This document shows, in pieces, positions 17,229-21,505 of a stretch of DNA of 29,064 nucleotides (position 1 is its first letter; each line of letters begins with the position of its first letter). The notes under the pieces were generated by a model. It was given only the letters and a program-made list of their open reading frames with translations, ran no database searches and had not been told where the DNA came from. The position numbers and the translations under genes are program-made. Origin of the DNA: a virus; the UHGV virus genome UHGV-0076264. The stretch is one strand, 5' to 3'.

Positions 17229-17909
17229 TCATCGCCATTGCTCCCCAAATACAAAACCAATTTCAGCCAGTGCCTCGTCCATTTTTTCGATGAACTCCGG
17301 CACCATCTCGTCAAAACTCGCCATGTACTTTTCATTCCGCTCAATCACGACATAATGCAGGCCTTCACGCTTCATGCGCGGGTCATAGTTGGCAAAGTAC
17401 CAGGCATCTTTTCGCGTCACCCACATGCTGTACTGCACCTGGGCCATGTAAGCCGATTTTATTGCCTCGAAACCACCGAGCCGGAATTTCATGAAATCCC
17501 GGGAGGTAAACGGGCATTTCAGTTCAAGGCCGTTGCCGTCACTGCATAAACCATCGGGAGAGCAGGCGGTGCGCATATTTTCGTCGCGATAGATGATCGG
17601 GGATTCAGTAATATTCACGCCGGAAGTGAATTCAAACAGGGTTCTGGCGTCGTTCTCGTACTGTTTTCCCCAGGCCAGCGCCTTAGCATTAACTTCCGGA
17701 GCCACACCGGTGCAAACCTCAGCCAGCAGGGTGTGGAAGTAGGACATTTTCATGTCAGGCCACTTCTTTCCTGAGCGGGGCTTTGCTATCACGTTGTGAA
17801 CTTCTGAAGCGGTGATGACGCCGAGCCGTAATTTGTGCCATGCATCATCCCCCTGTTCGACAGCTCTCACGTCGATCCCGGTACGCTGCAGGATAATGTC
17901 CGGTGTCAT
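17229..17909 (-). CDS. exo: Lambda exonuclease (Red alpha), 226 aa
   Basis: Near-identical to lambda Exo as recalled ([54 protein letters not shown]...). Confidence 0.95.
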
Positions 17910-18691
17910 GCTGCCACCTTCTGCTCAGTGGCTTTCTGTTTCAGGAATCCAAGAGCTTTCACTGCTTCGGCCTGTGTCAGTTCTGACGATGCGCGAATGT
18001 CGCGGCGAAATATCTGGGAACAGAGCGGCAATAAGTCGTCATCCCATGTTTTATCCAGGGCGATCAGCAGAGTGTTAATCTCCTGCATGGTTTCATCGTT
18101 AACCGGAGTGATGTCGCGTTCCGGCTGACGTTCTGCAGTGTATGCGGTATTTTCGACAATGCGCTCGGCTTCATCCTTGTCATAGATACCAGCAAATCCG
18201 AAGGCGAGACGGGCACACTGAATCATGGCTTTATGCCGTAACATCCGTTTGGGATGCGACTGCCACGGCCCCGTGATTTCTCTGCCTTCGCGGGTTTTGA
18301 ATGGTTCGCGGCGGCATTCATCCATCCACTCGGTAACGCAGATCGGATGATTACGGTCCTTGCGGTAAATCCGGCATGTACATGATTCATTGTCCTGCTC
18401 AAAGTCCATGCCATCAAACTGCTGGTTTTCATTGATGATACGGGACCAGCCATCAACGCCCACCACCGGAACGATGCCGTTCTGCTTGTCAGGGAAGGCG
18501 TAAATTTCTTTCGTCCACGGATTAAGGCCGTACTGGTTGGCGACGATCAACAATGCGATGAACTGCGCATCGCTGGCATCACCTTTAAATGCCGTCTGGC
18601 GAAGAGTGGTGATCAGTTCCTGTGGGTCGACAGAATCCATGCCGACACGTTCAGCCAGCTTCCCAGCCAGCGTTGCGAGTGCTGTACTCAT
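17906..18691 (-). CDS. bet: Lambda Bet (Red beta) single-strand annealing protein, 261 aa
   Basis: Near-identical to lambda Bet as recalled; start overlaps the exo stop in the usual ATGA arrangement. Confidence 0.95.
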
Positions 18692-18696
18692 CCGTT

Positions 18697-18993
18697 TTAT
18701 ACCTCTGAATCAATATCAACCTGGTGGTGAGCAATGGTTTCAACCATGTACCGGATGTGTTCTGCCATGCGCTCCTGAAACTCAACATCGTCATCAAACG
18801 CACGGGTAATGGCTTTTTTGCTGGCCCCGTGGCGTTGCAAATGATCGATGCATAGCGATTCAAACAGGTGCTGGGGCAGGCTTTTTTCCATGTCGTCTGC
18901 CAGTTCTGCCTCTTTCTCTTCACGGGCGAGCTGCTGGTAGTGACGCGCCCAGCTCTGAGCCTCAAGACGATCCTGAATGTAATAAGCGTTCAT
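18697..18993 (-). CDS. gam: Lambda Gam (short form GamS), RecBCD inhibitor, 98 aa
   Basis: [37 protein letters not shown]... matches lambda Gam; an in-frame stop lies 19 codons upstream of the ATG. Confidence 0.9.
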
Positions 18994-19069
18994 GGCTGAA
19001 CTCCTGAAAATGGCTGTGAAAATATCGCCCGCGAAATGCCAGGCTGATTAGGAAAACAGGAAAGGGGGG

Positions 19070-19276
19070 TTAGTGATTCAGGCCGTTACCGCGTCCGTCG
19101 AGAAAAACTTCCACGAGCAAATCACTGGTATAAGTGCGCTCGATGCCGCGATGCAGATAAAGCCGTCCGCGTAAATTAGCTGATGCAGTCCAGGTACCAT
19201 CTTTGTGTTTGACCAGCATTCCTGGCATGACCGCGCCGCGATTAACGGTCTGTGTTCCGTAATGTTGATGAACCAT
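19070..19276 (-). CDS. Possible Kil-like small protein, 68 aa (start chosen at ATG 19276 with AGGAG upstream; the ORF track extends it to 19480 from a TTG)
   Basis: Position immediately upstream of gam, with its stop inside the gam-L-homologous leader, corresponds to kil in lambda; sequence identity to Kil not confirmed. Confidence 0.3.
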   Translation of the reverse strand: MVHQHYGTQTVNRGAVMPGMLVKHKDGTWTASANLRGRLYLHRGIERTYTSDLLVEVFLDGRGNGLNH

Positions 19277-19498
19277 AAAAACTCCTGCCCGTAAGCTGGG
19301 CTGCTGAACATATAGAGACTTCTGCGCATATTCAGGCGGTGGATGGCCGCCGGTTGTCATAACTAAGCCGCCTCGTTGAAGCGACTGAGGTATGAAATGT
19401 TGAGTTAATTTCAGCTGGTCACACCGACGTTCACGCGTCCGTTTCACCCCTCGCACTCCCCGAAGCCTGCTGAAATTCAAACTGCGGATCTAAGCGGT

Positions 19499-19612
19499 CA
19501 TCGCAACGGTGAATCAGGTAGTTGCCGTATCGTTGTGTTGTTGCGATGAACTTATTTAAAACTATAGTTGTTTTATCGTCAACAACAAAAGTTGTTTTAT
19601 TGGTTGTTTTAG
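19499..19612. promoter_or_regulatory. Leftward early promoter/operator region (OL/pL-like) with cI-type half-sites and a 9-bp inverted repeat
   Basis: Palindromes built on AACAAC/GTTGTT half-sites (AACAACAAAAGTTGTT at about 19581-19596) that recur in the cI-cro intergenic region; inverted repeat CATCGCAAC/GTTGCGATG at 19499-19507 / 19540-19548. Confidence 0.5.
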
Positions 19613-19720
19613 ATATAACTGGTTGTATTTAGGATGGATTTATTTTGTGACTTGAATCGCATAGCGATAACTGAAGCGAGGTTATGGTGGTTTTTTTAAC
19701 GGTGTGTGTGATGAGGGGAG

Positions 19721-19750
19721 GGCAAAAGAAAACCCGGCACGGTGACCGGG
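19721..19750 (-). terminator. Intrinsic terminator downstream of cI
   Basis: Stem CCCGG/CCGGG (19733-19737 / 19746-19750) followed on the minus strand by TTTTCTTTTG. Confidence 0.5.
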
Positions 19751-19871
19751 ATTCTTACGCCGTTAGGTAAAGATATTATTGCGGTGGCTTAATATTACTA
19801 CCTAGAGCAAAGATAGGAATTAGTTCTTTACTGAATGAGCACAATGCCCAGTTGATAATTTTTAATTGGTA

Positions 19872-20561
19872 CTACCCATGCTTCCTATATGTCTGCGGCA
19901 TGCTCCCAATAACCTTACCGAAGATGAACACCCGGTTCATCTCGTCTTTCTCGATCGGGTCCCACGGTGAGTAGCTTTTGTTATCAGAGATGACCAGCAG
20001 CTTATCCTTCATCATTTGCAGGCGCTTTACATGGGCTGTGTCGTCGTACAGAAACGCATAGATACCATCACCGTCGAAAGATTTAACTGTGATATCAACG
20101 AACAGCAGATCACCTGGTTCGATCGTTCCTGACATGCTGTCACCACGCACGTTAATGATGCGGATATTTTCCGCCTTCCTACCATCGAACATGTGACGAG
20201 CATCGTCAAACGAGTACTCAACCGAGCGTAGAACTTCTACAAACTCACGGTTGATGACTCCCGGCCCAGCACTGACTTCTATATCAAGAACGTCAATCTT
20301 GAAGTATTTGGAATGGCTGACAGTTGATTGTATTGGTTGCACTGTACTGTCTGACATATTTCCAACGCCAGAAGATAACCATTCTGCGCGCACACCCAAA
20401 GCGTTCGCGATCTCCACGATTTTAGTTGTTTGATTAGCTTTCCCTGTTTCGATTTTCTGAATAGCAGCCTGGCTAACCCCGACCAAATCCCCAAGCGCCT
20501 TTTGTGTAAGGCCTCGCGCTAATCTGGCTTCTTTAAGTCTTTCTGAGAGTGTTGTTTTCAT
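19872..20561 (-). CDS. cI: CI-type prophage repressor (N-terminal HTH, C-terminal S24/LexA-like peptidase), 229 aa
   Basis: HTH (LTQKALGDLVGVSQAAIQKIETGK) and S24 region (RGDSMSGTIEPGDLLFVD ... VKRL); ORF trimmed to ATG at 20561. Confidence 0.85.
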   Translation of the reverse strand: MKTTLSERLKEARLARGLTQKALGDLVGVSQAAIQKIETGKANQTTKIVEIANALGVRAEWLSSGVGNMSDSTVQPIQSTVSHSKYFKIDVLDIEVSAGPGVINREFVEVLRSVEYSFDDARHMFDGRKAENIRIINVRGDSMSGTIEPGDLLFVDITVKSFDGDGIYAFLYDDTAHVKRLQMMKDKLLVISDNKSYSPWDPIEKDEMNRVFIFGKVIGSMPQTYRKHG

Positions 20562-20665
20562 AGTCCAAATGTACAACCAAGGTTTTATTTCATCAAACGA
20601 AAATGGTTGTTGACTAAAAACAACCATAGTTTTAATCTTGATTCAAATTAACCACGGAGGTTGTT
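20562..20665. promoter_or_regulatory. OR/pR/pRM-like operator-promoter region between cI and cro
   Basis: Inverted repeat TGGTTGTT-n7-AACAACCA and related half-sites in the 104-bp divergent intergenic region; RBS GGAGG before cro. Confidence 0.6.
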
Positions 20666-20896
20666 ATGAACCCAGCTATCAAAACAGCGATCAATATCGT
20701 TGGTTCACAAAAGAAACTGGGCGCTGCTTGCGAAGTTTCACAGCAGGCCGTCTATAAGTGGCTTCACAACAAAGCAAAGGTATCCCCTGAACATGTCGGC
20801 AGCATTGTTACGGCTACTGGTGGAGTAGTGAAGGCATACCAGATTCGCCCGGATCTTCCGAAGTTGTTTCCACACACCGAAAAGAACGCAGCTTAA
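20666..20896 (+). CDS. cro: Cro-like HTH repressor, 76 aa
   Basis: Small HTH protein (QKKLGAACEVSQQAVYKWL) transcribed divergently from cI. Confidence 0.8.
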   Translation: MNPAIKTAINIVGSQKKLGAACEVSQQAVYKWLHNKAKVSPEHVGSIVTATGGVVKAYQIRPDLPKLFPHTEKNAA

Positions 20897-20965: not shown

Positions 20966-21505
20966 ATGCAACCACTTCCATACCAACAGACTAGCGGATT
21001 TAGCCCGACTGCGGTGATAAATCGTTCTCAAACAAAACAGGTGCCAGGCCACGAAAAAATCCGTGATGCCGTCCGCGCCTGGTCGGCTGTAGATAATCAG
21101 GATGTCGTTGCCACACTCATTGTGAATGAGTATCGGGAGCAGGGCGGCGGCACCATCGATTTCCCTGATGATGTCAGCCGTGCACGCCAGAAGCTGTTCC
21201 GCTTCCTCGATAACAAATTCGATTCTGAAAAATACCGAAATAACGTGCGTGAACTGACCCCGGCAATTCTGGCGGTACTACCGCTGGAATATCGCGGTTA
21301 CCTGGTTGAGCAGGATAGCTTCATGGCCAGGTTGGCTGAAATGGAAAAGGAACTCAGTGAGGCAAAACAGGCTGTCATTCTCAACGCACCACGCCACCAG
21401 AAACTGAAGGAAATTAGTGAAGGTATTGTATCGATGTTTCGTGTGGACCCAGATCTGGCTGGTCCATTGATGGCGATGGTTACTACCATGCTGGGGGCGA
21501 TATGA
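20966..21505 (+). CDS. CII-like lysogeny regulatory protein (phage CP76-type family, tentative), 179 aa
   Basis: Position directly after cro; size and composition fit the larger CII-like family; family assignment from memory. Confidence 0.5.
   Translation: MQPLPYQQTSGFSPTAVINRSQTKQVPGHEKIRDAVRAWSAVDNQDVVATLIVNEYREQGGGTIDFPDDVSRARQKLFRFLDNKFDSEKYRNNVRELTPAILAVLPLEYRGYLVEQDSFMARLAEMEKELSEAKQAVILNAPRHQKLKEISEGIVSMFRVDPDLAGPLMAMVTTMLGAI

Follow-up and report, generated by a model that had tools for sequence, protein, structure and literature searches.

A lambda-like phage genome in which gam encodes only the short form of Gam, GamS

The gam gene of the virus genome UHGV-0076264 encodes only the 98-residue short form of Gam, GamS. 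We refer to the whole 29,064-nucleotide stretch of DNA that was analysed as the window; all features of the region from exo to kil lie on its minus strand. Because a 98-residue-only gene is the commonest state of gam in lambda-like phages, we regard this configuration as ordinary and the gene as undamaged. The configuration is annotated in phage 933W (AF125520) and occurs in thousands of genomes. The stretch at 18994-19120 is very probably the end of a Rac/phi80-type kil gene followed by an ordinary spacer of a lambdoid prophage, with GamS made from 18993, no longer form of the protein, and the GamS-only state ancestral. The initial annotation had instead described a disrupted long form, GamL, a description contradicted by the predominance of the GamS-only allele, its presence in viable phages, the divergent gam loci that have no extension and the different kil gene.

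The gam gene (18697..18993, from the ORF call) lies directly upstream of bet (17906-18691) and exo (17229-17909), forming a Red-type operon whose gene order recurs in the annotations of related phages and of E. coli. The predicted protein is identical to residues 41-138 of lambda Gam at 96 of 98 positions, the two differences being G38S and S61A in GamS numbering, and nucleotide identity to lambda is ~98% across gam. It covers positions 1-98 of 98 in both the Pfam Gam profile PF06064 (213.4 bits against a cutoff of 25) and PHROG 259 (E=3e-59). GamS is the form whose structure has been solved both alone and bound to RecBCD. Full-length matches were also obtained to the chains 5MBV_A and 2UUZ_A (E=1e-60), which are 98-99-residue GamS proteins ~97% identical to the window Gam; the latter differs at three positions from the 5MBV chain and at two from lambda. 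A Shine-Dalgarno motif, AGGAG at 19001..19005, can be read directly from the sequence 7 nt before the ATG, and translation would start from this motif at 18993. The product would then be the 98-residue GamS form, that is, the whole conserved Gam domain, and its near-identity to lambda GamS suggests a fully competent RecBCD inhibitor.

In the literature GamL and GamS are treated as two real isoforms, presumably arising from two start sites (PMC5218532, PMC11610958). Expression of either form from a plasmid in E. coli reduced the ciprofloxacin MIC about four-fold, and in some strains of K. pneumoniae the effect of GamL was somewhat larger than that of GamS (PMC5218532); the biochemistry of RecBCD inhibition by lambda Gam is described in the same paper. 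A literature search for ribosome profiling data returned nothing on the gam start site.

The 76 nt upstream of the gam start codon (18994..19069) are a non-coding kil-gam spacer that carries the gam Shine-Dalgarno motif and aligns with codons 16-40 of lambda GamL. Pairwise alignment with lambda (J02459, L001) showed that homology starts at TCACTAA, whose TAA ends both lambda kil and the window's upstream ORF. Across the spacer we found two substitutions, C to T at 19041 and T to C at 19012, and two 1-nt gaps, with all other aligned positions identical, a similarity well beyond what chance would give. Both gaps reflect an additional base in the window: a run of six C (19064-19069) where lambda has five, and a run of four T (19007-19010) where lambda has three. 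The longer T run is linked to the substitution at 19012, such that the window carries CATTTT (19007..19012) in place of the lambda TATTT, a frameshift relative to GamL. This alignment supports the initial annotation in placing DNA homologous to the GamL extension, in a shifted frame, upstream of the gam ATG: the +1 frame of the spacer encodes a GamL-like peptide that lambda has in the gam frame, and the peptide is out of frame here because of the extra T. As had also been noted, the gam frame is closed by a stop codon (TAA, 19050..19048) 19 codons before the ATG. No ATG, GTG or TTG is found in this frame between the two, leaving the 98-residue short form as the only one possible. An intact in-frame extension with an upstream start codon was looked for and is absent from the window.

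Upstream of the kil TAA the window is unrelated to lambda, and phages with a lambda-type kil align only from 19076 downwards. The ORF here runs from an ATG at 19276, preceded at 5 nt by AGGAG, to a TAA at 19072..19070 (19070..19276, 68 aa; the longest ORF extends to 19480), and so it ends within the 18994-19120 region as initially stated. It matches positions 4-80 of the 83-position profile PHROG 294 (E=3.3e-38), named 'Kil protein for bacterial septation inhibition', and profile searches gave no match to the lambda Kil families PHROG 3924, 2461 and 2055 and no Pfam hit. The corresponding ORF is annotated in phage Perceval as a phi80 Kil homolog, and at an identical E. coli locus PGAP calls a 98-aa Gam together with a 68-aa "phage encoded cell division inhibitor protein". 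From these matches we infer a Rac/phi80-type Kil, a putative inhibitor of cell division (FtsZ).

The identity of kil matters for GamL since the GamL ATG sits within the 3' end of lambda-type kil, in another frame; this start codon, ~40 codons upstream of the GamS methionine, is absent from the window. A longer Gam is precluded for three independent reasons, namely the CATTTT allele of the T run, which shifts the upstream sequence out of frame, a C run one base longer than that of lambda, and the replacement of the ATG-bearing lambda-type kil by an unrelated kil family. The last would suffice even if both runs had the lambda length, because the kil family differs (PHROG 294), as demonstrated by two IMG/VR loci (L005 and L062) that combine a phi80-type kil with TATTT and have no start.

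To establish how common the GamS-only allele is, IMG/VR was scanned for the region while allowing the length of the T run to vary, which returned at least 120 loci. Only two haplotypes occur among the matches listed, CATTTT (89) and TATTT (36), with the substitution and the indel never separated. A census was made of the 115 loci with enough upstream sequence, comprising 114 IMG/VR loci among the matches listed and the window itself. Among these matches the T4 allele is found in 81 of 115 loci, compared with 31 of 115 able to encode GamL. All 31 combine a lambda-type kil with TATTT and have an intact 40-codon extension with an ATG; one further locus of this type (L031) has no start and is broken by a C4 run. 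A lambda-type kil followed by CATTTT was found at 30 of the loci listed and a phi80-type kil followed by CATTTT at 50, in each case with no in-frame upstream start. The remaining matches listed are L005 and L062 and a single phi80-type, CATTTT locus (L059) with a Kil-Gam fusion. The C6 variant is also present in L039, L080, L092, L094 and L099 among the IMG/VR matches listed, and the exact spacer recurs in several IMG/VR contigs.

Searching 5,426 complete E. coli genomes with queries spanning the hairpin to the ATG, we obtained a best match of at least 99% identity for the window-type 60-mer in 1373 records, compared with 636 for the lambda-type 59-mer; these counts are approximate, being BLAST identity bands. 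The 80-nt spacer including C6 is matched exactly and over its full length by complete E. coli genomes, with 745 records in the ≥99% band as an upper bound. GenBank phage records are more evenly divided (68 of the window type versus 78 of the lambda type). The Stx phage 933W and the isolated phages Turner, Perceval and PhiR34_1 share the CATTTT allele with the window, and in each gam is annotated as 98 aa and follows kil after a gap of 75-83 nt. Of these, PhiR34_1 is a plaque-forming isolate that plates on K-12. PhiR34_1, Turner and Perceval resemble the window in having a phi80/Rac-type kil, whereas 933W has a lambda-type kil and has kept cIII and N. The C run also differs among them, reading CCCCA in 933W, TCCCC in Turner, Perceval and PhiR34_1, and CCCCCC in the window.

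Several variants of the kil-gam junction were seen in the course of this survey. In L059 (IMGVR_UViG_2713896771_000008; ~130 codons upstream of gamS) the stop codon of the phi80-type kil is TAC rather than TAA and the spacer TAA is GAA, creating a single in-frame Kil-Gam fusion ORF; this is one contig, and the fusion may be real or an error. A change of the kil stop from TAA to TAC (CACTACCCC) was also found in IMG/VR loci with a lambda-type kil (L013, L045, L011, L019, L022, L046, L061 and L097). This variant, CACTACCCC, recurs in several contigs, and kil would run on into the spacer. In 933W (L003, 2480-2620) and 30 IMG/VR loci among the matches listed, the T4 run is combined with a retained lambda-type kil 3' end. 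Extrapolating from the frame of the window, the extra T at such loci would, if the ATG is kept, give an out-of-frame ORF of ~51 codons ending ~30 nt inside gamS.

Further support for GamS as the basic form of the protein is provided by the wider Gam family. Both family profiles, PF06064 and PHROG 259, have 98 positions and match lambda GamL over residues 41-138 only. We identified six divergent gam loci, in two Citrobacter genomes, an Enterobacteriaceae genome, Enterobacter phage CobraSix, Salmonella phage SEN34 and Shigella phage 75/02 Stx. All six begin at the GamS-equivalent methionine (MNAY/MAAY...) behind an AGGAG-type Shine-Dalgarno motif, as does the window, and none has an in-frame upstream start, save for a single TTG in CobraSix at a distance of 38 codons, which leaves them with no credible longer form. 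The Shine-Dalgarno motif is retained as CAGGAG, TAGGAG or CAGGAA, and several of the spacers keep a hairpin. These homologues differ from the window in their identity (71-87% or lower) and in spacers that are largely different and have no T tract after the hairpin. The A/T tract just before the Shine-Dalgarno motif varies in length among them (TT, TTT or TTTT), as expected of non-coding DNA, and because outgroup lengths vary the length of the T run alone does not show which allele is older. The GamS search of genome contigs yielded mostly lambda-identical contigs, which were left out of the census, and five usable outgroup loci, of which two from E. coli/Shigella (L141 and L142) had an unclear start and were dropped. 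The lambda-identical sequences (L125-L140, L143-L144 and L148-L153) occur in assemblies of Pseudoxanthomonas, Enterococcus, Shewanella, Kitasatospora, Neobacillus and others, on contigs that are either ~48.5 kb long or tiny with ~1x coverage. Their presence in unrelated taxa most likely reflects contamination of public assemblies with lambda control DNA.

Taken with the census, the divergent loci suggest that GamS-only would be the ancestral and most common state, and that the 138-aa GamL ORF would be special to the lambda allele, in which a lambda-type kil is combined with a T3 run. In lambda (UniProt P03702; PDB 2UUZ, 5MBV) gam occupies the same position as in the window, flanked by kil on one side and bet-exo on the other within the leftward early operon, with the same Shine-Dalgarno motif and GamS start codon and the same TAA closing the upstream kil. 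The two differ in their runs and in kil: with T3, C5 and the ATG provided by a lambda-type kil, lambda has a GamL ORF of 138 codons, while T4, C6 and an unrelated kil restrict the window to GamS. Parsimony favours an ancestral 98-aa protein, with GamL arising only where the T3 allele sits behind a lambda-type kil; the direction of change would then be from GamS-only to GamL. The intact 138-codon ORF held by lambda runs counter to this reading, as would a specific role of the GamL extension, which is possible.

The similarity of the spacer to the GamL extension does not itself call for coding constraint. When the bases fixed by the search pattern are left aside, nucleotide diversity in the spacer is ~0.040, compared with 0.016, 0.011 and 0.037 at the first, second and third codon positions of gam. 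The clear homology is therefore accounted for by recent common ancestry at unconstrained sites, where diversity is about that of third codon positions. The extension in GamL-capable alleles has five nonsynonymous and four synonymous polymorphisms, small numbers in which purifying selection is not evident.

These data also bear on whether the window descends from an ancestor that made GamL, with the frameshift and kil replacement destroying it at a functional cost. Such a loss would explain a spacer nearly identical to lambda GamL coding DNA, and alleles with an intact extension are indeed common (the 31 of 115 loci among the matches listed, and the 636 E. coli records in the ≥99% band for the lambda-type 59-mer). 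We nevertheless consider a true loss improbable: the six outgroup loci have no credible extension, the GamS-only allele is the more frequent among the matches listed and occurs on two kil backgrounds, plaque-forming phages carry it, spacer diversity equals that of synonymous sites, and the polymorphism counts in the extension, small as they are, do not favour constraint. Far less probable still is that both homopolymer insertions arose as errors of sequencing or assembly in a phage that really encodes GamL. Each change is a +1 in a homopolymer run (C5 to C6 and T3 to T4), and changes of this kind are a typical error of some platforms. The T4 run, however, always comes with the adjacent T to C substitution among the IMG/VR matches listed, and hundreds of independent complete genomes, as well as phage records, contain the identical 60-mer and 80-mer. 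On the strength of this linkage and of so many independent genomes with the identical sequence, we exclude error as the explanation; moreover, a phi80-type kil gives no start even at lambda-length runs (L005 and L062). A longer Gam produced by recoding, through readthrough of the kil stop codon, programmed frameshifting at the T run or both, has a similarly negligible probability. The upstream frame does continue the kil frame past its TAA, and one IMG/VR contig (L059) has a true in-frame Kil-Gam fusion, but readthrough and frameshifting would both be needed, inspection revealed no canonical slippery heptamer or suitably placed stimulatory structure, the gam frame itself contains a second in-frame TAA, and relatives give no hint of selection on that frame.

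A different view of the spacer is that it has been kept as a functional RNA that tunes gam-bet-exo through a terminator or attenuator and a hairpin occluding the start codon, with the lambda GamL ORF merely overlying it. We think this doubtful, although it is compatible with the ordinary-spacer explanation. A consensus scan identified a terminator-like hairpin, GCCUG-GCAUUUCG-CGGGC followed by GAUAUUUUCA (19017..19047), whose core stem at 19044-19027 can be extended to 19047-19025. The scan scored the stem at 19044-19027 plus GATATTTTCA, and it yielded three such sites where 1.5 are expected by chance. In a comparison of 28 distinct spacer variants, this hairpin has 92% of its cells paired and three pairs changed on both sides, as expected of compensatory change, but one pair of the stem is mismatched in several variants and the T tract is absent from the Citrobacter and CobraSix spacers. 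A second, small hairpin, GUUCA-GCCA-UGAAC (18988..19001), includes part of the start codon and the first gam codons, is present in minimum free energy (MFE) folds and might limit Gam translation. Three covarying pairs in Citrobacter-type loci (AGCC...GGCU) argue for it; these come from few related sequences in RNAalifold. The RNAalifold consensus of seven diverse spacers keeps both hairpins, and the segment with the hairpin and Shine-Dalgarno motif in CobraSix is still matched by blastn at 84.8% identity despite a Gam coding sequence that has diverged beyond blastn detection. Against an RNA element are fold z-scores that are ordinary (-0.66 for the window and -1.59 for lambda), an overall spacer diversity equal to that of synonymous sites, and an Rfam search of 18600-20000 that gave no match at E<=1. 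A lambda tL2 sub-terminator may map to the spacer hairpin, a link that we do not claim; a literature search returned only tL2a, located between ea10 and ral. In the MFE fold the pyrimidine tract UCCUG (19057-19061) pairs with the gam Shine-Dalgarno sequence CAGGA (19002-19006) in an anti-Shine-Dalgarno-like arrangement; the z-score is weak and the pairing may be due to chance.

A more specific version of these ideas, which we put forward only tentatively and think somewhat unlikely, is that the 40-residue GamL extension is young and allele-specific, created by the T3 spacer and the ATG of a lambda-type kil, and overprints an older regulatory spacer controlling Gam and Red. If so, the overprinted spacer, with its hairpin or attenuator and its start-codon hairpin, would be the older feature, present across enterobacterial lambdoid phages.

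The region beyond kil is Rac-like in its layout. The window has no N-like antiterminator gene at 19277-19871, between the kil-like ORF and a cI-like repressor gene (19872-20627, minus strand) with HTH and S24 peptidase domains. A YdaS-type cro (20666-20896) and a YdaT-type gene (20966-21505) make up the rest of a Rac-like immunity region. The isolated phage PhiR34_1 has the same Rac-like, N-less layout, and Turner likewise has an immunity region without N. A strong terminator-like hairpin, CCCGGTCACCGTGCCGGG followed by TTTTCTTTTG, lies at 19733-19750 on the minus strand, ~120 nt downstream of the repressor gene, and is probably the terminator of the repressor transcript, like tM in 933W. We also observed a 17-nt direct repeat, AACWAWAGTTGTTTTAT, at 19560 and 19584 (spacing 24 nt), and two inverted repeats, TCATCGCAAC/GTTGCGATGA (19498/19540) and TTGTGTTGTTG/CAACAACAAAA (19533/19580). 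The repeats in 19498-19600 are candidate leftward operator or promoter elements. A plus-strand ORF of 36 aa (19522-19632) overlaps them and is annotated as hypothetical in phage Turner.

For the window itself the GamS-only state has little consequence: the Red/Gam module is intact and ordinary, and its Gam is expected to inhibit RecBCD in the manner of GamS, which is in wide use as a reagent. For the family, the 138-aa GamL ORF of the lambda reference record occurs in about a quarter to a half of close alleles, depending on the collection. The Gam family as a whole has not conserved the GamL ORF, and there is therefore no ground for calling a 98-aa gam with lambda-like upstream DNA truncated or a pseudogene.
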